This document shows positions 22,017 to 60,237 of a stretch of 64,000 nt of DNA, one piece after another (the first letter of the stretch is position 1; each line of letters starts with the position of its first letter). The DNA comes from Eledone cirrhosa. Taxonomy: Eukaryota. The notes beneath the pieces were generated by a model. That model did not search any database, was not told the origin of the DNA, and worked only from the letters and a program-made list of their open reading frames with translations. The stretch is from NCBI GenBank assembly GCA_964016885.1, contig OZ024746.1:57970001-58034000 (forward strand), given 5' to 3'. The translations under genes were made by a program, and so were the position numbers.

Positions 22017-22065
<49 letters not shown>

Positions 22066-22088
22066 AGTATATATATATATATATATAT

Positions 22089-22279
22089 TAACGAAGGAAA
22101 TGTGGTAAGGAACCAGGTGGACCATAACGCACCAAAGTACTCAATACTTGAGGTAGTAGAGTGGGTAATAGGAACCAGTAAGACCCCGACAGCTGGGCTC
22201 AAGCCGTTTCGACGGCTAATTCTCCGTCGAAATTAGCCGTCGAAACGGCTTGAGCTCAGCTGTCGGGGTCTTACTGGTT

Positions 22280-22285
<6 letters not shown>
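22089..22285 (-). mobile_element. Solo 3'-end remnant of the tandem PLE pLTR (family A) with inversion
   Basis: Near-identical to 33853-33985, then folds back; sits in (TA)n. Confidence 0.85.
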
Positions 22286-22478: not shown

Positions 22479-22775
<297 letters not shown>

Positions 22776-22938
22776 TGTCTGCGTGCGTGTGTATATATAT
22801 ATATATATATATATAGGTTGAAATAAAATGAAAACGAAATTTCATTTCTCACTCTTAGTACGGCACTTACTTAAATGTAAGTATGTATGTATACGTACAT
22901 ACATATATGTATACAGACGTACAGTGGCATGCACACAC

Positions 22939-25909: not shown

Positions 25910-26345
25910 TGTAGGAGGTGAGTTTTATTGTAGTACAATAAAGCAATGCAGATATCGGATAAGAAGCACTCTACAGTTTGTGGGACTGGAGTATGCATAA
26001 TATAAGATCAAAAGATGGTTAAAGGAGTTCAATATATTTTATTATGCGCATTTCAAAAACAAACATCATCAAAACAATAATATTTGTGTTTTCATCAGAT
26101 AAAACAGGAGAACATGATATGAAGGCTAAAAAAACACTTGTTGATAGTGCAGTTTTAAATCAACATATCATGATATGTTGATTTAAAACTGCACTATCAA
26201 CAAGTGTTTTTTTAGCCTTCATATCATGTTCTCCTGTTTTATCTGATGAAAACACAAATATTATTGTTTTGATGATGTTTGTTTTTGAAATGCGCATAAT
26301 AAAATATATTGAACTCCTTTAACCATCTTTTGATCTTATATTATA
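25910..26345. mobile_element. Palindromic PLE pLTR remnant (family B) with two divergent HHRs
   Basis: Near-perfect palindrome centred near 26170; HHRs at 26037-26104 (-) and 26237-26304 (+), CTGATGA...GAAATGCGCATA. Confidence 0.85.
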
Positions 26346-26701
26346 TATATGTATATGTATACTTATATATATAAATATAATTTCACCGAGATCGTATTTC
26401 GGCGGTAGCCAAAACAAAACGAAACACAATCTTCGTGATATGCAGACAAGCGGTCAATGGACTAAGAAGAAACCAGGGCAATTAACATGTGTTATAAAGG
26501 CGAGATAAAATGAAAACAGTGGTTGTGAATTTTGCAGCCAACCGTAGCCGAAAAAACGAATCGAGCTAAATATCTTCAATCTGGCGTAACCACAGTAAGT
26601 AAGGTACTCAATACTTAGCAGAGTATAAACATTTAATATATAAATGGCTTACTGATGATTTCTCCCGAATGAACCAGTTCTAGTCCTGTAGAAGCCATTT
26701 C

Positions 26702-29138: not shown

Positions 29139-29435
<297 letters not shown>

Positions 29436-30278: not shown

Positions 30279-30433
30279 GTATACACAGGTGTGTATGATT
30301 GTGTATAGAAGATTATATTAATAAGAGGAATTCCAACTTTGTCTGATTTACTCGTTTTATTTACAATCCTTTAAAATTTATAATGGTATTATAATGAAAT
30401 AGTATGATAGAATATTAAATTCTAAGTGTTAAT

Positions 30434-30472
30434 TGAACAAGTACTTTCATGCTTTCGCAATCTTCAGGTTCA
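30434..30472 (-). ncRNA. Minimal type-I hammerhead ribozyme in pLTR
   Basis: Reverse complement of the motif at 33673-33711. Confidence 0.8.
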
Positions 30473-30786
30473 TAATATGTGGTGACAGTCAAGTTTGCAA
30501 TTTTCAACTGTAATAAGATGGGTAAATTTTCTACCTTTTCTACATTTTATACAGGGAAAAGTGGCTCCAGAATCCTAAGTCTTGCAAACTGTATTTCGAC
30601 CAATCAGTGTGTAGTTTCACTGAATTACTAAAGCTGATTGGTTTAAGCGTCACGGCTAGTTGAGTATGTCTAACGACCAATAATTAATCATATCCAAAGC
30701 ATCAATTGTTTTGCTATTTTTAGAAATTATGAAAATAGCATTTTCTATTAATCATCACCATCAACATCACTTTTATTATTATTATT

Positions 30787-30819
<33 letters not shown>

Positions 30820-30866
30820 AGTGGTCGTAGTCATAGTGATAGTAGAAGTAATACAAATAAGCGTTA

Positions 30867-32615
30867 TTATTGTTCATTTAGCTTGGGTTTGAATTTATCA
30901 ATAACATTCTTTTCTTTGATTTTTCTCTTGATTTCACTTGGGCTGTGTAATTTGTAGAATGGGAATATTATAAATATTCCCTGACCACATGTTGCTAGAT
31001 GGTTACTTAGCGGTATCTGACGGACATTTGGGTCTCTGATTTGTTGACGGTGTACCCGTGCACGTTCCGATAGTGCATTTCCAGTTTGACCGACATATAG
31101 TTTTTCACAATTCGGGCATTTAATGCAGTAAATTAGATTTCTGCTTTTGCAGTTCATATTTGCATTTGGGAATATTTTTCCAGTTTTTGTTTTCATATAT
31201 TCACCGGCGTGTATGGATTGACATGTGCCGCATCGACTATCATTGCATTTAGATACAGTGAATGATTGGTCTTTGTTGTTAAGGTCAAACTTTGCTTTTG
31301 TTAGTAATTGCTTCAAATTTTTTGGCTGTCTTTTACTAAGAGTCAAAGATCGATCTGTGATTAAGCCTTTTAATTCATTACTTTGAGCAATGATCGGTAG
31401 GTTTGCTTTGGCAGTGTTGAAGATATTCTGGTGACATGGGTTGTGTGTCATTATAAATGGTATGACCAGTTCTTGGTTTCTTCTTCCTTGGGTTGTCCTA
31501 AGTTGTGGTATAGCTATTTTTATAGCCCGCTGTATGCCATTTTCTATAAGTAGAGATGGGTATTTTTGTTTGAGCAAAAATTCTCTTAGTTCTGTTAGGC
31601 GTTTGTACCTGGTATTCGTATCTTCTACAATGGTACACATTATTCTGGCTAGGCAGTATGGGATGTTGCGTTTTGTATGAAGTGGATGGCACGACTTAAA
31701 ATTCAGATATTGATGGGTGTCTGTGTGTTTATAATATATATCCGTGGTAATGGTGGTGTCGTTTTTGATTAGCATTATATCTAGGAATGGTAATTTGGTC
31801 CTACTCATCTCTTTTGTGAATTGGAGAGATGGGGGTAGGTTATTCAGGAGGATATTGAACTCATCCAGAGTATCTAGAGATTCTGTCCAGATGATGAAAC
31901 AGTCGTCAAGGTATCTCTTCCAAGATTGTTTAATGTACTTTCTAAAGTCAGTACTATATTTTTCCTCTATTTCTTGGTAGAGTTGTTGTTCTAAGTATCC
32001 CATTACAGAGTTCGCGTAAACGGGAGCAAACTTCGTTCCCATCGCTGTGCCTCTAATTTGGATGTAATTATTTCCATTGAAGAAGAAAGTGTTGTTTTCC
32101 AGAATAAGTTTAACTGCGTCTAATATAAATGGCGCTCTGAATCTGATGGGAATCACTTCTCTATGTTTTTCCACCCAGTATTTAACCGCCTTTATTCCTA
32201 AATCATGTGTAATGTTGGTTTAAAGGCTTACCACATCAAAACTTAGTAGAAGTGAATTCGTTTCCGTGGTTTTGGGAAGATGGGACAGGAAGTCGATATC
32301 ATCCCGGATGAAACTGGGTATGTGAATACATAGTGGTTTCAAAATAATGTCAACAACATTGCTTTGACGGGGGGTGGGGCATGTTGGACCAGCTATAATA
32401 GGTCTAAGTTTTAAGTCTTTTGGGTGTAATAATTTAATCTACTCACTGTTTTGTTCTCTTACTGCAAGTTGTATTTCTTTTGACATATGAACTTTCGGTA
32501 GGCCATACAGGTTGCTGGGTTTCGGCTCAAAATTGGTGATGTAGTCTCTGTTTCCTTATCAGTAAGTGAGTTGTGGTATTTTGAAGCCAGGTTGTTGATC
32601 TTCTTCATGATGTTG
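30867..32615 (-). pseudogene. PLE reverse transcriptase + GIY-YIG endonuclease (435-aa open part; upstream stops and frameshift)
   Basis: YGLPKVH, LRPII, SFDVVSL*TNI, GTAMGT, WKRYLDDCF, LPFLDI, linker CNDSRCGTC, NLIYCIKCPNCEKLYVGQT. Confidence 0.9.
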
Positions 32616-32616
32616 T

Positions 32617-33278
32617 GGGCTATAAAAATACCTATACAACAACTTAGGACAACCCAAGGAAGAAGAAACCAAGAACTGGTCATACCATTTATAATGACAC
32701 ACAACCCATGTCACCAGAATATCTTCAACACTGCCAAAGCAAACCTACCGATCATTGCTCAAAGTAATGAATTAAAAGGCTTAATCACAGATCGATCTTT
32801 GACTCTTAGTAAAAGACAGCCAAAAAATTTGAAGCAATTACTAACAAAAGCAAAGTTTGACCTTAACAACAAAGACCAATCATTCACTGTATCTAAATGC
32901 AATGATAGTCGATGCGGCACATGTCAATCCATACACGCCGGTGAATATATGAAAACAAAAACTGGAAAAATATTCCCAAATGCAAATATGAACTGCAAAA
33001 GCAGAAATCTAATTTACTGCATTAAATGCCCGAATTGTGAAGAACTATATGTCGGTCAAACTGGAAATGCACTATCGAAACGTGCACGGGTACACCGTCA
33101 ACAAATCAGAGACCCAAATGTCCGTCAGATACCGCTAAGTAACCATCTAGCAACATGTGGTCAGGGAATATTTATAATATTCCCATTCTACAAATTACAC
33201 AGCCCAAGTGAAATCAAGAGAAAAATCAAAGAAAAGAATGTTATTGATAAATTCAAACCCAAGCTAAATGAACAATAA
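32617..33278 (+). pseudogene. Inverted duplicate of the GIY-YIG coding 3' end (part of the pLTR)
   Basis: Nearly identical to the C-terminal ~220 aa of the 30867-32174 ORF. Confidence 0.88.
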
Positions 33279-33325
33279 TAACGCTTATTTGTATTACTTC
33301 TACTATCACTATGACTACGACCACT

Positions 33326-33358
<33 letters not shown>

Positions 33359-33672
33359 AATAATAATAATAAAAGTAATGTTGATGGTGATGATTAATAG
33401 AAAATGCTATTTTCATAATTTCTAAAAATAGCAAAACAATTGATGCTTTGGATATGATTAATTATTGGTCGTTAGACATACTCAACTAGCCGTGACGCTT
33501 AAACCAATCAGCTTTAGTAATTCAGTGAAACTACACACTGATTGGTCGAAATACAGTTTGCAAGACTTAGGATTCTGGAGCCACTTTTCCCTGTATAAAA
33601 TGTAGAAAAGGTAGAAAATTTATCCATCTTATTACAGTTGAAAATTGCAAACTTGACTGTCACCACATATTA

Positions 33673-33711
33673 TGAACCTGAAGATTGCGAAAGCATGAAA
33701 GTACTTGTTCA
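33673..33711 (+). ncRNA. Minimal type-I hammerhead ribozyme in inverted pLTR
   Basis: TGAAC-CTGAAGA-T-TGC(gaaa)GCA-T-GAAA-GTAC-TT-GTTCA; palindromic stem III AGTACT. Confidence 0.8.
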
Positions 33712-33945
33712 ATTAACACTTAGAATTTAATATTCTATCATACTATTTCATTATAATACCATTATACATTTTAAAGGATTGTAAATAAAACGAGTAAATC
33801 AGACAAAGTTGGAATTCCTCTTATTAATATATATATATATATATATATATATAACGAAGGAAACGTGGTAAGGAACCAGGTGGACCATAACGCACCAAAG
33901 TACTCAATACTTGAGGTAGTAGAGTGGGTAATAGGAACCAGTAAG

Positions 33946-34039
33946 ACCCCGACAGCTGAGCTCAAGCCGTTTCGACGGCTAATTCTGGACTAAATGAAAA
34001 TTTGTCCTGGTATTTAAATAGCCGATCTTCTCAAGGGGT
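33946..34039 (-). ncRNA. Type-I hammerhead ribozyme, U3-A8 core variant
   Basis: ACCCC-TTGAGAA-GATCGGCTA...TAGCCGTC-GAAA-CGGCT(tgagctc)AGCTG-TC-GGGGT. Confidence 0.8.
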
Positions 34040-35136
34040 AATTCCATATATGGTCAAAGTGATTGTCAAAAATCAGTAGTAATTCTGTGGTTGCAAATTA
34101 GTAGGGGAGATGGTGGCTAAACCTGCCAGTAGGAGAAGGAGGGGAGGGGCTGGAGTAGACCCAATCAAGCGTTGGTAGTGCCAGCTACAGCTGGGCATGA
34201 GGTCAAAGAAGATACAGGGGAGGGGGAGGGGGAGGAAGTCGGAACGGTAGGTAGAACAATGGGGGGTAGAAATATATAGGAAAGAAAAAATACTGAGAGT
34301 GGAGAAAAGCAAATAAGTGTAAAGAAAAAAGTAAAGTAAATTCTACGACCTAGGTCTCTAGCTATTGTTAGGCTAGAATAAATAAATAAATAAAGAAATA
34401 AAGAAGTAAAGAAAGAAATAAAGAAATAACGAAATAAGTAAAAGAACTAGGTGGGACGAGATAGGCAAGGACCCTTTTAAGAGGTATAAGTACGTAAATG
34501 ATACGGTGACGGGTCAACAAAAAGGGCCAAAATACTAAAGAGACTTCCACGAAATAAACAATAAAGGTTTCCATCCCGGGCACAATGCCAGCAACCACCC
34601 AGTGCAGCAAAGTGAACTAGTACGAGATAATAATTCTGAGTCCCGAGAAAAATATATACTAATGCTAACTCTAAAAGATCTCAAACAAGCTACATGAAAG
34701 TTCGTACGAAGTAAAGCTAGAATACGGGAAAATAAATTCAGAATCCACCCCGCCCAAAAGAAAAGCGAAGAAAGAAATACTGAAACGAAAAAATAAGGCA
34801 TAAGTGCCACTAAGAAATATAGAGGGCACAGAGAATAGTGGGAGCGGTCGGAAAAAGGGGACAAGTATCCGGGGTCTAAACCAACTGCTATAAAGGGCGA
34901 AGTCCGCCAAATCTATCATAGACTAGGGGAGGGGGTGGGGGTACTAAGGCTACAAGGGGCCAAAGGGCAGCCTCGGGTGGGCGAGAAAAGACGCCGACAA
35001 AGGAGAAGAGCTGGGGTAGAAGGACTAAGGAGAGAGGGGGGGAGGAAATAAAGGAAGCGATAAAAGAATACAAAGAAGATCTTACGTCTCCCTTGGCAAG
35101 CAGGGGTTACACATTGCAAAATCGGCAAGTGGGGTG

Positions 35137-37305
35137 TTATAGCCCTAGTCTACCCCCCCCGGGGTCATTATGGGGTTTGAGGGCGAGGTAAGTCCTACGC
35201 AATCTATGTTTACATGCAGTAACCAGTTCATCTTTCTTGTTTAGGAGTTGGTCCGTCGAAAACAGCATTTGTAAAGTTTCCTCCGAGCATAAATTGCACG
35301 GACGGCGTCCTCCCGTGTAAGAATTGGCTCTGGACAGTAATCTCCAAGTGAGATCATAGGTGATGTTGTTGTCCTTGAGGTCCCATATGTGGCCCGAAAG
35401 TGTAGTGGCGTGACGCCGGGCCGGGTTTCGGAAGGTATGTCTATGTTGGTATAGCCGGGTCTTGAAGTCACATGCGGTAAGTCCTATATAGGCTTTGTTG
35501 GAGGTATCCGTCCTCACGTTGCACTGGTAGATCACATTACGGTCTCTGCATCTATTGTCGAGTGGGCAAATGGATCTATCCGGGCAGTTAGACCTCCTGG
35601 TCGGTTCTCCACTGCTATTTAGGTTATTTCTGCCATCGGGGTTGAGTTTTTTGTTGTTAGAGGAGACGATGTTTTGTGCGAAGTTTGGTGTAGTGCTGTA
35701 AGAGAGTTTGATGGTATTTTTGTTAATTATGTTGTGGTAGCGGTGTTGTAATGGGAAGTGTTTTTCAATGAGCCTAAAGAATAGTTTCCCGATGGGAGTT
35801 GTCACCTCTGCGTTGTGGGGAGGATTGAACCATGTCACATTGTGTGAGCGGCGGTGTCTCCTGCTGGTTCCGCTAATGGGAACTGGACAGTAGGATATTT
35901 CCTCCCGGAAACCACTCCGCTTGAGGGCCTGGTTGTAATAATGCGCATGTTCATCGAATATCCGCTCATTAGCTGACAAACGGGATATGCGGAGGGAGAT
36001 GTTTTTGACCAGGTTGTTTGTAATGTTCCTAGGATGGTTTGATCGGCGGTGGATGTAGTGCAGATTGTCATTAGGTTTCCTGTATGGGTAGTACAGGTCG
36101 TTTTCGAGGTCGAGGGTCACGTCCAGGAAGTTTACTCGGGTCAGGGACGTTTGTAGGGTTATTTTAAATCCCCAGTCGCGGAAGAATCTGATTAATTGTT
36201 TCCGGACCCGATCTGTACTACTGGGGTTGTACCCTTTAAGGGTAAGGAGCCCATCATCACGGTACAATCCACCACCGAATGCAGGAAACATATCAGTGAG
36301 TTTGGCTATTAGGAATAATCCTATAAGATCTGTGACCTCCGCCGAATCCGTGGCGCCCATGCTGACGTCGAAGGGTGAGTCGGGAGCTCTTTTTATCCAT
36401 TTAGAGTCGTCAAAGAGTAAGACTGTCTTCCTGGCGTGGAGGATGATTTTTTTTTCCTGGTCGGTGATGGGCACAAGTGTTTCGGCGAAGTCCAAGGCGG
36501 CAGTAAGTAGCGGTAAGGTGATTGAAGCATAGTAGCTCTCTATGTCGAACTGTATGAATTTAGTTTCTCGTTTATCCTCCATATTGCTGAACCAGGAGAT
36601 TACTTCCTGGGTGTTGATCCATAGGCTAAGTCGGGTGTGTTGCTTGACTTTTGGTATCACGCGGTCTAGGATTTTTTTGCTGATTCTCCCTATGTCGGAC
36701 TTCGTTGGGTTAATAAGCCTGATAGAGGGTTTACGGTCAAAATCGGATTTATGGTCCTTCAGTGTGAAGTATGGTGTCCGTGGGTCTAGAGGTTCCGTGC
36801 GGTCGGCGACCCCGAGGCTGGAGGTAATTTGTTGTCCATGTCGATTTATGTCCTCGATGCAAGAGTGGTTGGCCTTTTTATAGGTGGAGTTTAGGCTGCT
36901 CCTGATCGGTGTGTGGTATCTGTCAGGGTTGACAAATTATAGGTTCCCAGTTTTATCCGAATGCACCATGATGTCATTTGTGTTATCATACTCTGTTAAG
37001 TTGCTACGGAGTTTTTGTAGGAATCGGTTGTGTCTGGGTTTAAATTTAATGTTCTTGACCAGTTGGAAGAGGTCATTCTCGAAGGGTGCGAGCAAGGGGT
37101 TCAGGGGCGGAGATTTGTAGGTAATAAATCCGAATCTCTCCTTGGTGCCGAAGTCTTGGTTGTCGCAATATCTGTCATAGAAAAAAGTTCTCCATCTAAG
37201 TCTTTTCGCAAATAGATCGATTTTTTGCGTGAGCATCCGAAGGTAAAGTTTTTTCGGTGGGATTGGGATATTCTTGGTAGAGAAGTCAATGTTGTGTTTT
37301 CGCAT
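35137..37305 (-). pseudogene. PLE RT + GIY-YIG polyprotein (722 codons, one internal TAA at 36937-36939)
   Basis: MRKHNIDFSTKNIP...DKTGNL*FVNP...TLKDHK..IRLINPTKSDIG..QFDIESYY..LYRDDGL..FLDV..VIYQC..YIGLT..CNLC; the upstream and downstream ORFs are in the same frame. Confidence 0.9.
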
Positions 37306-37490
37306 GGTGCGGGTGAAGTGAATTGAGCCTAGCGGAAAAGTCTGGATACGGCGTGGTAGGGTCGGAAAGTGCTCTACTACGGGAGTAGGAGCTAGATAAC
37401 GAAGGAAATGTGGTAAGGAACCAGGTGGACCATAACGCACCAAAGTACTCAATACTTGAGGTAGTAGAGTGGGTAATAGGAACCAGTAAG

Positions 37491-37584
37491 ACCCCGACAG
37501 CTGAGCTCAAGCCGTTTCGACGGCTAATTCTGGACTAAATGAAAATTTGTCCTGGTATTTAAATAGCCGATCTTCTCAAGGGGT
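37491..37584 (-). ncRNA. Type-I hammerhead ribozyme, U3-A8 variant (copy 2)
   Basis: Matches 33946-34039. Confidence 0.8.
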
Positions 37585-38684
37585 AATTCCATATATGGTC
37601 AAAGTGATTGTCAAAAATCAGTAGTAATTCTGTGGTTGCAAATTAGTAGGGGAGATGGTGGCTAAACCTGCCAGTAGGAGAAGGAGGGGAGGGGCTGGAG
37701 TAGACCCAATCAAGCGTTGGTAGTGCCAGCTACAGCTGGGCATGAGGTCAAAGAAGATACAGGGGAGGGGGAGGGGGAGGAAGTCGGAACGGTAGGTAGA
37801 ACAATGGGGGGTAGAAATATATAGGAAAGAAAAAATACTGAGAGTGGAGAAAAGCAAATAAGTGTAAAGAAAAAAGTAAAGTAAATTCTACGACCTAGGT
37901 CTCTAGCTATTGTTAGGCTAGAATAAATAAATAAATAAAGAAAGAAAGAAGTAAAGAAAGAAATAAAGAAATAACGAAATAAGTAAAAGAACTAGGTGGG
38001 ACGAGATAGGCAAGGACCCTTTTAAGAGGTATAAGTACGTAAATGATACGGTGACGGGTCAACAAAAGGGGCCAAAATACTAAAGAGACTACCACGAAAT
38101 AAACAATAAAGGTTTCCATCCCGGCACAATGCCAGCAACCATCCAGTGCAGCAAAGTGAACTAGTACGAGATAATAATTCTGAGTCCCGAGAAAAATATA
38201 TACTAATGCTAACTCTAAAAGATCTAAAACAAGCTACATGAAAGTTCGTACGAAGTAAAGGTAGAATACGGAAAAATAAATTCAGAATCCACCCCGCCCA
38301 AAAGAAAAGCGAAGAAAGAAATACTGAAACGAAAAAATAAGGCATAATTGCCACTAAGAAATATAGAGGGCACAGAGAATAGTGGGAGCGGTCGGAAAAA
38401 GGGGACAAGTATCCGGGGTCTAAACCAACTGCTATAAAGGGCGAAGTCCGCCAAATCTATCATAGACTAGGGGAGGGGGTGGGGGTACTAAGGCTACAAG
38501 GGGCCAAAGGGCAGCCTCGGGTGGGCGAGAAAAGACGCCGACAAAGGAGAAGAGCTGGGGTAGAAGGACTAAGGAGAGAGGGGGGGAGGAAATAAAGGAA
38601 GCGATAAAAGAATACAAAGAAGATCTTACGTCTGTCTCCCTTGGCAAGCAGGGGTTACACATTGCAAAATCGGCAAGTGGGGTG

Positions 38685-40853
38685 TTATAGCCCTAGTCTA
38701 CCCCCCCCGGGGTCATTATGGGGTTTGAGGGCGAGGTAAGTCCTACGCAATCTATGTTTACATGCAGTAACCAGTTCATCTTTCTTGTTTAGGAGTTGGT
38801 CCGTCGAAAACAGCATTTGTAAAGTTTCCTCCGAGCATAAATTGCACGGACGGCGTCCTCCCGTGTAAGAATTGGCTCTGGACAGTAATCTCCAAGTGAG
38901 ATCATAGGTGATGTTGTTGTCCTTGAGGTCCCATATGTGGCCCGAAAGTGTAGTGGCGTGACGCCGGGCCGGGTTTCGGAAGGTATGTCTATGTTGGTAT
39001 AGCCGGGTCTTGAAGTCACATGCGGTAAGTCCTATATAGGCTTTGTTGGAGGTATCCGTCCTCACGTTGCACTGGTAGATCACATTACGGTCTCTGCATC
39101 TATTGTCGAGTGGGCAAATGGATCTATCCGGGCAGTTAGACCTCCTGGTCGGTTCTCCACTGCTATTTAGGTTATTTCTGCCATCGGGGTTGAGTTTTTT
39201 GTTGTTAGAGGAGACGATGTTTTGTGCGAAGTTTGGTGTAGTGCTGTAAGAGAGTTTGATGGTATTTTTGTTAATTATGTTGTGGTAGCGGTGTTGTAAT
39301 GGGAAGTGTTTTTCAATGAGCCTAAAGAATAGTTTCCCGATGGGAGTTGTCACCTCTGCGTTGTGGGGAGGATTGAACCATGTCACATTGTGTGAGCGGC
39401 GGTGTCTCCTGCTGGTTCCGCTAATGGGAACTGGACAGTAGGATATTTCCTCCCGGAAACCACTCCGCTTGAGGGCCTGGTTGTAATAATGCGCATGTTC
39501 ATCGAATATCCGCTCATTAGCTGACAAACGGGATATGCGGAGGGAGATGTTTTTGACCAGGTTGTTTGTAATGTTCCTAGGATGGTTTGATCGGCGGTGG
39601 ATGTAGTGCAGATTGTCATTAGGTTTCCTGTATGGGTAGTACAGGTCGTTTTCGAGGTCGAGGGTCACGTCCAGGAAGTTTACTCGGGTCAGGGACGTTT
39701 GTAGGGTTATTTTAAATCCCCAGTCGCGGAAGAATCTGATTAATTGTTTCCGGACCCGATCTGTACTACTGGGGTTGTACCCTTTAAGGGTAAGGAGCCC
39801 ATCATCACGGTACAATCCACCACCGAATGCAGGAAACATATCAGTGAGTTTGGCTATTAGGAATAATCCTATAAGATCTGTGACCTCCGCCGAATCCGTG
39901 GCGCCCATGCTGACGTCGAAGGGTGAGTCGGGAGCTCTTTTTATCCATTTAGAGTCGTCAAAGAGTAAGACTGTCTTCCTGGCGTGGAGGATGATTTTTT
40001 TTTCCTGGTCGGTGATGGGCACAAGTGTTTCGGCGAAGTCCAAGGCGGCAGTAAGTAGCGGTAAGGTGATTGAAGCATAGTAGCTCTCTATGTCGAACTG
40101 TATGAATTTAGTTTCTCGTTTATCCTCCATATTGCTGAACCAGGAGATTACTTCCTGGGTGTTGATCCATAGGCTAAGTCGGGTGTGTTGCTTGACTTTT
40201 GGTATCACGCGGTCTAGGATTTTTTTGCTGATTCTCCCTATGTCGGACTTCGTTGGGTTAATAAGCCTGATAGAGGGTTTACGGTCAAAATCGGATTTAT
40301 GGTCCTTCAGTGTGAAGTATGGTGTCCGTGGGTCTAGAGGTTCCGTGCGGTCGGCGACCCCGAGGCTGGAGGTAATTTGTTGTCCATGTCGATTTATGTC
40401 CTCGATGCAAGAGTGGTTGGCCTTTTTATAGGTGGAGTTTAGGCTGCTCCTGATCGGTGTGTGGTATCTGTCAGGGTTGACAAATTATAGGTTCCCAGTT
40501 TTATCCGAATGCACCATGATGTCATTTGTGTTATCATACTCTGTTAAGTTGCTACGGAGTTTTTGTAGGAATCGGTTGTGTCTGGGTTTAAATTTAATGT
40601 TCTTGACCAGTTGGAAGAGGTCATTCTCGAAGGGTGCGAGCAAGGGGTTCAGGGGCGGAGATTTGTAGGTAATAAATCCGAATCTCTCCTTGGTGCCGAA
40701 GTCTTGGTTGTCGCAATATCTGTCATAGAAAAAAGTTCTCCATCTAAGTCTTTTCGCAAATAGATCGATTTTTTGCGTGAGCATCCGAAGGTAAAGTTTT
40801 TTCGGTGGGATTGGGATATTCTTGGTAGAGAAGTCAATGTTGTGTTTTCGCAT
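38685..40853 (-). pseudogene. PLE RT + GIY-YIG polyprotein, second copy (internal TAA at 40485-40487)
   Basis: The 507-aa and 171-aa translations are identical to those of the first copy. Confidence 0.9.
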
Positions 40854-41038
40854 GGTGCGGGTGAAGTGAATTGAGCCTAGCGGAAAAGTCTGGATACGGC
40901 GTGGTAGGGTCGGAAAGTGCTCTACTACGGGAGTAGGAGCTAGATAACGAAGGAAATGTGGTAAGGAACCAGGTGGACCATAACGCACCAAAGTACTCAA
41001 TACTTGAGGTAGTAGAGTGGGTAATAGGAACCAGTAAG

Positions 41039-41132
41039 ACCCCGACAGCTGAGCTCAAGCCGTTTCGACGGCTAATTCTGGACTAAATGAAAATTTATCC
41101 TGGTATTTAAATAGCCGATCTTCTCAAGGGGT
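41039..41132 (-). ncRNA. Type-I hammerhead ribozyme, U3-A8 variant (copy 3)
   Basis: Same motif with one change in the distal stem II. Confidence 0.8.
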
Positions 41133-42369
41133 AATTCCATATATGGTCAAAGTGATTGTCAAAAATCAGTAGTAATTCTGTGGTTGCAAATTAGTAGGGG
41201 AGATGGTGGCTAAACCTGCCAGTAGGAGAAGGAGGGGAGGGGCTGGAGTAGACCCAATCAAGCGTTGGTAGTGCCAGCTACAGCTGGGCATGAGGTCAAA
41301 GAAGATACAGGGGAGGGGGAGGGGGAGGAAGTCGTAACGGTAGGTAGAACAATGGGGGGTAGAAATATATAGGAAAGAAAAAATACTGAGAGTGGAGAAA
41401 AGCAAATAAGTGTAAAGAAAAAAGTAAAGTAAATTCTACGACCTAGGTCTCTAGCTATTGTTAGGCTAGAATAAATAAATAAATAAAGAAAGAAAGAAGT
41501 AAAGAAAGAAATAAAGAAATAACGAAATAAGTAAAAGAACTAGGTGGGACGGTATAGGCAAGGACCCTTTTAAGAGGTATAAGTACGTAAATGATACGGT
41601 GACGGGTCAACAAAAGGGGCCAAAATACTAAAGAGACTACCACGAAATAAACAATAAAGGTTTCCATCCCGGCACAATGCCAGCAACCATCCAGTGCAGC
41701 AAAGTGAACTAGTACGAGATAATAATTCTGAGTCCCGAGAAAAATATATACTAATGCTAACTCTAAAAGATCTAAAACAAGCTACATGAAAGTTCGTACG
41801 AAGTAAAGGTAGAATACGGAAAAATAAATTCAGAATCCACCCCGCCCAAAAGAAAAGCGAAGAAAGAAATACTGAAACGAAAAAATAAGGCATAATTGCC
41901 ACTAAGAAATATAGAGGGCACAGAGAATAGTGGGAGCGGTCGGAAAAAGGGGACAAGTATCCGGGGTCTAAACCAACTGCTATAAAGGGCGGAGTCCGCC
42001 AAATCTATCATAGATTAGGGGAGGGGTGGGGGCACTAAGGCTACAAGGGGCCAAAGGGCAGCCTCGGGTTGGCGAGAAAAGACGCCGACAAAGGAGAAGA
42101 GCTGGGGTAGAAGGACTAAGGAGATAGGGGGGGAAGGAAATAAAGGAAGCGATAAAAGAATACAAAGAAGATCTTACGTCTCCCTTGGCAAGCAGGGGTT
42201 ACCCATTGCAAAATCGGCAAGTGGGGTGTAATAGCCCTAGTCTCCCCCCCCCCCCGGGTCATTATGGGGTTTGAGGGCGAGGTAAGTCCTACGAAATCTA
42301 TGTTTACATGCAGTAACCAGTTCATCTTTCTTGTTTAGGAGTTGGTCCGTCGAGAACAGCATACATATA

Positions 42370-43121: not shown

Positions 43122-43175
43122 CTTTATTAGCCAACAATGTTTCGTCCTATTAAGGACTCATCAGGGCAATTAAAA
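43122..43175 (-). ncRNA. Minimal type-I hammerhead ribozyme
   Basis: AATTGCC-CTGATGA-GTCC(ttaata)GGAC-GAAA-C(att)G-TT-GGCTAATAAA. Confidence 0.85.
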
Positions 43176-45864: not shown

Positions 45865-46471
<607 letters not shown>

Positions 46472-47387: not shown

Positions 47388-49444
47388 GGGGTGAGTTTTA
47401 TTGTAGTACAATAAAGCAATGCAGATATCGGATAAGAAGCACTCTACAGTTTGTAGGACTGTAGTATACATAATATAAGATCAAAAGATGGTTAAAGGAG
47501 TTCCATGTATTATATTATGCGCATTTCAAAAACAAACATCATCATGCAATAATATTTGTGTTTTCATCAGATAAAACAGGAGAACATGATATGAAGGCTA
47601 AAAAACACTTGTGGATAGTGCAGTTTTAAATCAACATATGAAAAGTGGTTTTAGATTGATGTGTGATATTGGGAAAAATATTTTATTTAGAGAGGGGGGT
47701 GGAAAGGATGAAAAAGGGGAGGAGATGAGAGGGAGAGATGGGTGATAGAGAGAAAGAAAGAGATAGTTTTTATAATTGAGAGGAGATATATTGTTTTACA
47801 TAGAGAGGTTGAAAACCGTTGGAAGATAATGTATAAATTAAAAATTTGAAATTAACGAAGGGAGGATATGTGCGAGGAAAGAATATTTTATTTATGGAGG
47901 GGGGGGGAGGATGAAAAAAGGGGGAGGAGATGAGAGTGAAGGTGGAGAGGGAGAGATGGGTGATAGAGAGAAAGAGATAGTTTTTATAACTGAGAAAAAG
48001 ATATATTGTTTTACATAAATTAAAGGAATTTGAAAATTAACGAAGGGAATTTATGTATGAAGATAGAGAGAAAAAATAATAATTGTGGATGAATATTCTA
48101 ACGTCAAAAAAAGTGTGTGTTGATAAGTATTGTGGCAATTTCAAAATTAACGAAGAGAAAAATTATTAAGGTTTGTGTGTAGAAGGATTTGAGAAAAATA
48201 ATGTGAAGTTAAAGTTTGTATATTGAAGGAATTGATAATATATGCGAATAAAGAGTTAATATGTATTAAGAATGAGTTCATTGATGGGGAGAAAAAAATA
48301 ATAAATTAAGGATGAAATTGAGATTAAAAAGATTTATGATAGAGAGAAAAAATAATAATGATTGCGGATGAATATTCTAACGTCAAAAAAATAAATGTAT
48401 ATGTTATGAAGGATTTTACAAGGTGAAGATAGAATGAGGGTAATGAGTAAACAAGTATTATCTTTCAAATACAAACTTAAAAGAACCAACACTGCTCTCT
48501 CAGAACTCATATGGTCCTTAAAAGACAAAAACATTAAATATACCATCTTTTGGAAGAAGGTTTCTTCTGCATCCTCATACTTGAACAGCTCTCTATCTAA
48601 AATCTGTAATCTCTGCCTAAATGAAAAATTTACCATTATCTCTAACCTAGATTCTATAATAAATAGACGTACAGATTTATTTTCTATATGCCTCCATAAA
48701 TTCCATAGGACTTTTCACAAAGTATACAGTTAATATTCAATTCTTTATCAATTTAGAATCTTTTCTCAAAGGCACACATACATACACCTCTTTAAAATAT
48801 ACCCATCTTCCCACCTTACTTTAAAGGACATTATACACTCTATAATACTTGTTTACTCATTACCCTCATTCTATCTTCACCTTGTAAAATCCTTCATAAC
48901 ATATCCTTTAATTTATGTAAAACAATATATCTTTTTCTCAGTTATAAAAACTATCTCTTTCTCTCTATCACCCATCTATCCCTCTCCACCTTCACTCTCA
49001 TCTCCTCCCCCTTTTTTCACCCCCCCCCCCTCCATAAATAAAATATTCTTTCCTCGCACATATCCTCCCTTCGTTAATTTCAAATTTTTAATTTATACAT
49101 TATCTTCCAACGATTTTCAACCTCTCTATGTAAAACAATATATCTCCTCTCAATTATAAAAACTATCTCTTTCTTTCTCTCTATCACCCATCTCTCCCTC
49201 TCATCTCCTCCCCTTTTTCATCCTTTCCCCCCCCCTCTCTAAATAAAATATTTTTCCCAATATCACACTAAAACCACTTTTCATATGTTGATTTAAAACT
49301 GCACTATCCACAAGTGTTTTTTAGCCTTCATATCATGTTCTCCTGTTTTATCTGATGAAAACACAAATATTATTGCATGATGATGTTTGTTTTTGAAATG
49401 CGCATAATAAAATACATGGAACTCCTTTAACCATCTTTTGATCT

Positions 49445-51072: not shown

Positions 51073-51489
51073 GGAGGTGAGTTTTATTGTAGTACAATAA
51101 AGCAATGCAGATATCGGATAAGAAGCACTCTACAGTTTGTGGGACTGGAGTATGCATAATATAAGATCAAAAGATGGTTAAAGGAGTTCCATATATTTTC
51201 TTATGCGCATTTCAAAAACAAACATCATCAAGCAATAATATTTGTGTTTTCATCAGATAAAACAGGAGAACATGATATGAAGGCTAAAAAAACACTTGTT
51301 GATAGTGCAGTTTTAAATCAACATATATGTTGATTTAAAACTGCACTATCAACAAGTGTGTTTTTTTAGCCTTCATATCATGTTCTCCTGTTTTATCTGA
51401 TGAAAACACAAATATTATTGCTTGATGATGTTTGTTTTTGAAATGCGCATAATAAAATATATGGAACTCCTTTAACCATCTTTTGATCT

Positions 51490-59693: not shown

Positions 59694-60237
<544 letters not shown>

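Follow-up and report, generated by a model that had tools for sequence, protein, structure and literature searches.

The minus strand of the window (the whole 64,000-nt stretch of Eledone cirrhosa DNA that was analysed) carries a motif at positions 33946-34039 that, by all core features testable from sequence, is a type I hammerhead, located in the pLTR of what its protein motifs place as a young Hydra-clade PLE. The reading preferred here, with a probability of about 0.62, is that this hammerhead would cut a small share of the element's RNA at its GUC site in vivo, with most of the RNA staying uncut or being re-joined. Coordinates of the features discussed are collected in Table 1.

Table 1. 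Features of the hammerhead, its host element and a related duplication (positions in the window).
Feature	Position	Strand	Basis
Whole array, 2.4 units of ~3,545 nt between (TA)n tracts	33848..42362	-	
PLE ORF with RT and C-terminal EN, Hydra-clade marks; stop 36937-36939 (TAA)	35137..37305	-	
Second ORF copy, identical stop at 40485-40487	38685..40853	-	
PLE 'tail' between the two insertion ends, abutting (TA)n	33851..33931	-	260 copies
Hammerhead copy 1, type I, 3'-most of array	33946..34039	-	sequence and fold
Stem I 5' strand ACCCC, partner GGGGU at 33950-33946	34035..34039	-	sequence; three C-G pairs retained in 43/44 rows
Core U3 U4 G5 A6 G7 A8 A9; U3 = 34034, A8 = 34029	34028..34034	-	genome matches; N7 = A/C/G/U
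Stem II, G10.1-C11.1, bulge, CGGCUA/UAGCCG, long loop	33974..34027	-	covariation
Stem III ACGGC/GCYGU (5 bp), 9-nt loop NN-GAGCUC-N; palindrome 33963-33958	33952..33970	-	loop counts and covariation
Predicted cleavage site GUC/G (cut after C17); C17 = 33951, G1.1 = 33950	33950..33951	-	numbering; genomic 5' ends accumulate there
Hammerhead copy 2, 190 nt upstream of ATG at 37305, in recent tandem duplicate	37491..37584	-	
Hammerhead copy 3, within 5'-truncated upstream pLTR	41039..41132	-	
Core-less inverted duplication of 3' half, older subfamily (contains 60135-60160)	60021..60235	-	

Anatomy and covariation of the motif

Read on the minus strand from 34039 to 33946, the motif comprises ACCCC, UUGAGAA, stem II, GAA, stem III, GUC and GGGGU, which confirms the first-pass annotation in its description of a UUGAGAA core with a stem I of ACCCC/GGGGU, a long stem II and a GUC site. 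Three helices surround the core and the motif is open at stem I; U4 G5 A6 N7, A9, G12 A13 A14, an A15.1-U16.1 pair and H17 are all present. C17, G1.1 and the other position numbers follow general hammerhead numbering. Stem II runs in the order G-C, A-U, bulged U and CGGCUA/UAGCCG, with a loop of ~37 nt; A9 directly adjoins G10.1 without an extra base, and the bulged base follows the first or second pair of the stem. With its 5-bp stem III and no base between positions 9 and 10.1, the motif is not a min-HHR. An extended, bulged stem I is also predicted at 34040-34052 on the minus strand (AUAUGGA with UUCCUAU), the 5' strand of which is near-invariant across subfamilies.

Covariation was examined in 44 rows that had been selected to represent the range of subfamilies and core types; 89.3% of their stem cells are paired, versus 27-47% in slid controls. 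The G10.1-C11.1 pair that closes stem II is G-C in 36 rows and G-U in 4. In aligned rows that were picked with these letters, positions U4, G5, A6, A9 and G12 to A15.1 are invariant while N7 and loop II drift. Three pairs of stem II change on both sides (G-C/A-U 24/14). Conversely, none of the six pairs of stem III does so in these rows, five of them being near-invariant and the sixth broken in 33 of the 44, such that the covariation ascribed to stem III by the earlier annotation belongs to stem II instead. Nor does the sequence at 60135-60160, which had been cited as a covarying relative, serve as one; its sixth pair goes from U-A to a C-A mismatch, and it has no 5' core.

Host element and tandem array

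The element is placed as a young Hydra-clade PLE by protein motifs and by blocks compared by eye, rather than by a tree. Copies L225 and L226 have open frames of 789 aa that carry RWR, DKT, a CNC-x5-C linker, CNLC, CKH and a C-terminal EN, and the clade is defined by RWK-like and DKT motifs, a CxCX5C linker, and CxxC and CxH at the EN end (PMC8557442). The protein matches Hydra-1_Obim block by block when judged by eye; searches of Pfam, NCBIfam and PDB with it returned no RT match, and BLASTP to the adjoining GIY-YIG PLE of the window gave a weak alignment (E 4e-7). Habits of the clade are also present, namely (TA)n targeting, partial tandems of the pLTR, a tail and inverted 5' truncations. 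The family is young, the C-terminal 147 aa being 98-100% identical in every one of the 150 genome matches that were scored. The motif lies ~100 nt from the 3' end of the 3,545-nt unit, and ORF marks, array structure and 3' position thus agree with the earlier assignment of the hammerhead to a PLE pLTR.

The motif had also been described as present three times. Three copies are indeed found, but they do not represent three events, since units 1 and 2 share eight ORF substitutions, including the stop, that are absent from all of the 11-37 other copies compared. These two units are identical in the ORF part, whereas unit 3 differs by ~2%; the pLTR of unit 2 is a mosaic, and the outer pLTRs of the array differ by ~2%. 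The middle copy is accordingly read, from these sequence differences, as a recent duplication or an assembly duplicate. A rolling-circle origin of the tandem is ruled out by the private ORF changes common to units 1 and 2 and by the ~2% divergence of the outer pLTRs. Selenocysteine readthrough of the internal stop was likewise rejected, as the codon is TAA and other copies are open.

Several other repeats were observed in the window. Adjoining the array, at 30314-33831, is another PLE with GIY-YIG and a CxxxxCxxC linker, Neptune-like by motif, which is present as a 1,215-nt inverted repeat. A canonical CUGAUGA type I hammerhead of another repeat family lies at 43126-43170 on the minus strand (Rfam Hammerhead_1, E 0.0047, below the gathering score), and hammerhead-like motifs that have CUGAUGA and, in loop III, the palindrome UGCGCA are found at 25992-26349, 49348-49410 and 51393-51455, the pair near 26 kb forming a perfect 179-nt inverted repeat with zero spacer.

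Variation at core positions 3 and 8

Core types were counted genome-wide with identical flank patterns for U3-A8, C3-A8, U3-G8 and C3-G8. The 5,556 core matches comprise 4,337 with U3-A8 and 1,179 with the C3-A8 mismatch, together with 30 U3-G8 and 10 C3-G8 matches; reversed-pattern controls gave 0. All four bases occur at N7 across the U3-A8 subfamilies, and in an older subfamily, whose stem II differs, U3-A8 predominates among the 100 listed of its 114 matches. Since the variant core has 4,337 matches, is free at N7 and prevails in the older subfamily, U3-A8 is taken from these genomic counts to be a conserved lineage trait, in keeping with the expectation that UUGAGAA would recur in relatives. 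The first-pass annotation had further called the pair compensatory, which stands when the core is set against the CUGANGA of published Hydra hammerheads but not within the Eledone genome, given the 1,179 matches of the mismatched form. Its description as a rare functional covariant overstates the rarity, ~1,300 U3-A8 hammerheads having been reported from PLEs of Schistosoma (Cervera and De la Pena 2014; PMC4209133). For ribozymes with this pair, activity in vitro is stated in PMC3088659. In sequencing run X1, which may be the assembly's own sample, U3>C is present at about one quarter of the depth, with no A8>G row.

In a tree of 196 pLTR rows, built with the core masked, the 36 C3-A8 rows cluster (9 changes versus 33.5 when shuffled) and the 7 C3-G8 rows do not (7 changes). 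C3-G8 as an ancestral subfamily of family A was rejected on the grounds that its seven rows are singletons, six of them inside C3-A8 clades; the 10 genome matches are about the number expected from point mutation. A tree of the EN end, comprising 43 of 63 rows after exclusion of 20 near-identical young rows, gave a ladder of UUGA(A/C)AA, CUGAGAA and UUGAGAA, its tip being occupied by the window family, with the root unfixed and half of the branches weak. The order of the ladder is read from end-branch lengths of 0.015-0.076, up to 0.05 and up to 0.005, respectively. If this order is right, the active lineage long had a mismatched 3-8 pair and later regained U3. An earlier path from C3-G8 through U3-G8 to U3-A8 is plausible because the deeper branches have G8 forms and the published Hydra hammerheads are CUGANGA. 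Two distant single-copy relatives (L067 and L068) have a C3-G8 core and an identical stem III, with loop AA-GAGCUC-G in L067.

Since the C3-A8 grade made 1,179 copies, a paired 3-8 core appears dispensable for transposition, and the grade thereby provides a natural experiment on whether transposition needs catalysis. A literature search found no paper on catalytic activity of C3-A8 cores. G7 is present in 1,132 of the 1,179 C3-A8 matches and is compatible with a register slip in which C3 pairs with G7 in the CUGAGAA grade, although a single lineage cannot show constraint; that A-to-I editing of A8 could restore a C-I pair is speculation only.

Folding and cleavage as a monomer

The minimum free energy (MFE) fold of the 94-mer is the hammerhead, at -24.6 kcal/mol. 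With a z-score of -1.43, and 20 of 200 shuffles equally stable, the fold is not exceptional; the motif is judged not to be due to chance because of its conservation as opposed to its folding. An Rfam search of positions 33880-34120 returned no match at E<=10, so that the expectation of standard searches missing the motif holds for Rfam, the likely cause being the long loop II together with the variant core. Stems II and III of the isolated window motif form with a probability of 0.75 at 37 °C and 0.91 at 18 °C, and the changes of the youngest subfamily lift the probability of the active fold from ~0.25 to 0.75, the immediate predecessor subfamilies having hammerhead stem probabilities of 0.2-0.4. 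A competing hairpin, AGCCGU/ACGGCU, lies no more than 0.4 kcal/mol from the hammerhead fold, and the probability of stem I is ~0 in contexts of 350-650 nt. RNAalifold did not recover stems I, II and III together and returned a core-sequestering hairpin, which has a low probability in single-sequence ensembles.

Folding of the 5-bp stem III in these models makes monomer cleavage possible, and the motif could, as a first alternative to the preferred reading, be an efficient stand-alone monomeric ribozyme, the long stem III removing the need for a dimer and tandem transcripts being processed into templates of one unit that may be circular. This is favoured by the hammerhead being the MFE fold of the isolated motif, by the rise in active fold in the youngest subfamily and by the monomeric cleavage of a fungal PLE hammerhead with a large helix III (PMC4209133). 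However, the rival fold is close in energy, the C3-A8 grade amplified well, and the window tandem is a post-insertion duplicate that offers no rolling-circle evidence. Moreover, the cut site is spanned in most copies, which argues that their templates were uncut or re-ligated, and an efficient monomer is on the whole considered unlikely.

Insertion ends and copies starting at the predicted cut site

The 3' insertion ends lie ~20 nt (120 of 260 copies) or ~100 nt (126 of 260) downstream of the predicted cut; the short end, at 33931, coincides with the foot of the predicted extended stem I. Most truncated copies are inverted pairs that break off 1-32 nt upstream of GAAAC, and a broad 5'-truncation hotspot covers the 3' strand of stem II and the adjoining loop. 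Exact 3' halves number 69,558 genome-wide, versus the 5,556 matches with a recognisable core. Core-less mini-elements, made up of two inverted 3' hammerhead halves plus the tail within (TA)n, were observed in the window at 22060-22284, 22516-22811, 29141-29241, 46209-46344 and 60021-60235, and there are tens of thousands of these genome-wide with mostly distinct junctions.

Cut-site starts were scored as tailed copies that start exactly at G1.1 and are preceded by three non-element bases. There were 263 such genome matches, compared with 89 at a control site three nt upstream. Inspection of the first 30 loci identified true breakpoints in 28 of 30 at the cut site and 19 of 30 at the control, which scales to ~245 versus 56, for a single control position and with an unmatched filter that leaves out one (TA)n phase and palindromes that are symmetric about a single-base spacer. 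At ten of the 30 inspected cut-site loci the copy is a symmetric palindrome, each arm of which ends at G1.1, and eight of these have a single A/T spacer, whereas 20 inverted pairs taken in listed order, and truncated further upstream, included three that were symmetric and none with a one-base spacer. Direct junctions with microsatellite-type flank were seen at 7 of 30 cut-site loci and 1 control. A hand tally of 3' tags hints at a stronger cut-site enrichment in the U3-A8 subfamilies, but is not taken as evidence because the filters differ by subfamily; it assigned U3-A8 tags to 43 of 100 listed cut-site matches versus 12 of 89 controls, and the tag common to the C3-A8 grade to 23 of 100 listed versus ~44 of 89 controls. 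Some cut-site starts are seen in the C3-A8 grade also, under its shared 3' tag, which counts against the preferred reading. Among the 6 of 34 rows shown for X1, the best-supported upstream-side loose ends are at 33950 (3 contigs) and 33951 (2). At two loci (L205 and L220), the pieces to which arms starting at the cut site are attached come from the ORF or 5' region of the element itself, which looks as though RT had jumped from a cut 5' end to another RNA fragment.

The copies starting at G1.1 are likely a record of cleavage in vivo, as far as genomic ends can report on it. By a rough estimate the cut-site peak does not, per position, exceed the broad hotspot in stem II, and by rough scaling the share of insertions derived from cut RNA would be a few percent only. 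The predicted cut is situated at the base of stem III and next to a run of G, where RT stalling could mimic such 5' ends, and this forms part of a second alternative, in which the motif is a dead or irrelevant relic whose stems I-III act as a PLE protein binding or initiation signal. The 1,179 mismatched C3-A8 matches, placed along what appears to be the trunk of the tree, would suit a relic, as would the excess of exact 3' halves over copies with a core, the lack of covariation in stem III (as for a sequence-specific protein site) and the Poseidon PLE, in which catalytic mutants are without effect on insertion (PMC11167929). Against this, the positions held invariant while N7 and loop II drift are those of a hammerhead core, with the proviso that the rows were picked with these letters, although the freedom of N7 is also seen genome-wide; the lineage appears to regain U3-A8; and in the palindromes both arms end at G1.1, C17 is absent and one base is added. 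A relic is thus regarded as rather improbable, and copies starting at the cut would, on the preferred reading, amount to DNA-level evidence of cleavage that can be counted by subfamily without RNA.

Loop III palindrome

Positions 3-8 of loop III (NN-GAGCUC-N) are fixed in 247-256 of 260 copies (95-98%), with positions 1, 2 and 9 differing by subfamily. Two stem III strands could pair into an 18-bp dimer helix of -26.3 kcal/mol, versus 2 x -4.9 kcal/mol as hairpins, and the fixed palindrome thus favours a dimer, which in the model is possible alongside the monomer. The 2+6+1 geometry of the loop resembles that of the HIV-1 dimer initiation loop. Since the core-less mini-copies retain stem III, this stem probably also serves as a signal for protein binding or RNA pairing. 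An obligate dimer switch, in which a kissing loop would bring two element RNAs together as a precondition of cleavage or template switching, would draw on the loop's fixation, its helix energy and its likeness to the HIV-1 loop, and on the palindromic loop III being a hallmark of dimeric PLE hammerheads (PMC4209133, PMC6765202), but is very improbable, given that no palindrome-preserving change was seen in the 260 copies, that protein binding could explain the fixation, that any hairpin gains energy on dimerising and that the stem is sufficiently stable to form in the monomer.

Proposed mechanism

Under the preferred reading, namely occasional cutting of element RNA by the hammerhead, RT would start at the two insertion ends described above, which lie ~20 and ~100 nt 3' of the cut, and copy back through the ribozyme. 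RNA that had been cut would, as a template, yield only a stub of 20-100 nt. At the cut RNA end the enzyme would run off at G1.1, often adding one A or T, and the joining of two run-off cDNAs would create GACCCC-A/T-GGGGUC palindromes. Full-length copying would require an intact junction, in either uncut or re-ligated RNA, and selection should therefore favour a slow or conditional ribozyme. Catalysis of that kind would be consistent with the U-A pair, with the rival hairpin and with the long period spent at C3-A8, in a lineage presumably able to transpose with a mismatched core, and the palindromic loop may let two pLTRs pair into the 18-bp dimer helix.

A more ambitious picture can be drawn, in which the genome is the fossil record of an in vivo self-limiting hammerhead switch: cutting would kill the full-length template and leave palindromic stubs, the 3-8 pair would have walked through U-G, U-A and C-A and back in order to tune catalysis, and the kissing-loop stem III would couple cutting to RNA pairing. 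This picture is tentative and, taken whole, somewhat doubtful. Were it true, cut-site stubs would constitute a sequence-only activity assay applicable to every PLE subfamily in any genome.

Comparison with known systems

The founding paper on PLE hammerheads itself states that evidence from in vivo work is lacking (PMC4209133), and Frangieh et al. (2024) did not find RNA-seq reads that end at the Poseidon PAc hammerhead site (PMC11167929). A literature search found no genomic cut-site footprints and no amplified C3-A8 PLE lineage; the supplements of PMC4209133, Lunse 2017 and Przybilski 2007 may hold similar variants.

With the min-HHRs of Cercyon, from Schistosoma mansoni, the Eledone motif has in common a type I hammerhead in the pLTR, U3-A8, a long helix II and a helix I of 4-5 bp, as well as thousands of dispersed truncated copies and opposite-strand pairs (PMC4209133). 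The Cercyon forms lack a helix III stem and have an extra base between positions 9 and 10.1, whereas in the Eledone motif stem III has 5 bp and a 9-nt loop that is palindromic, no base is inserted between 9 and 10.1, and loop II is ~37 nt long. More generally, helix III is absent or 1-2 bp in metazoan PLE min-HHRs, compared with five near-invariant pairs and a 9-nt loop here, although a palindromic loop III is common to both. The long stem III emphasised by the first-pass annotation is thus longer than usual for a metazoan PLE, but large helices III are known in fungal and protist PLEs (PMC4209133). Those hammerheads, such as that of Serpula lacrymans, likewise have a stable helix III that permits monomer folding; they belong, however, to EN-deficient telomeric PLEs outside animals and have measured cleavage, with U3-A8 going unmentioned in the accessible text (PMC4209133), whereas the Eledone motif is known from sequence.

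The hammerheads of the Hydra clade (Craig et al. 2021, File S2; PMC8557442) share with the Eledone motif the clade, the 3' position and (TA)n targets. The Hydra rows listed in that file are all CUGANGA, none of them being U3-A8, with a stem III of 3-4 bp, loops of 1-3 nt and a loop II of 3-10 nt. Poseidon PAc of Anolis, finally, has two RT start sites downstream of the cut that bound a 'tail', as in Eledone (PMC11167929). Its hammerhead is protein-assisted, single mutants at positions 3 or 8 are dead, and the main insertion substrate is uncut RNA, which is the template proposed for Eledone too. However, the Poseidon core is C3-G8 and overlaps the start codon, and cut ends were not found in vivo (PMC11167929), whereas in Eledone there are DNA copies that start at the predicted cut. 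The U3-A8 core, being already published for PLE hammerheads, adds little alone; what is new is its combination with a 5-bp stem III and a 9-nt palindromic loop in a metazoan Hydra-clade PLE.
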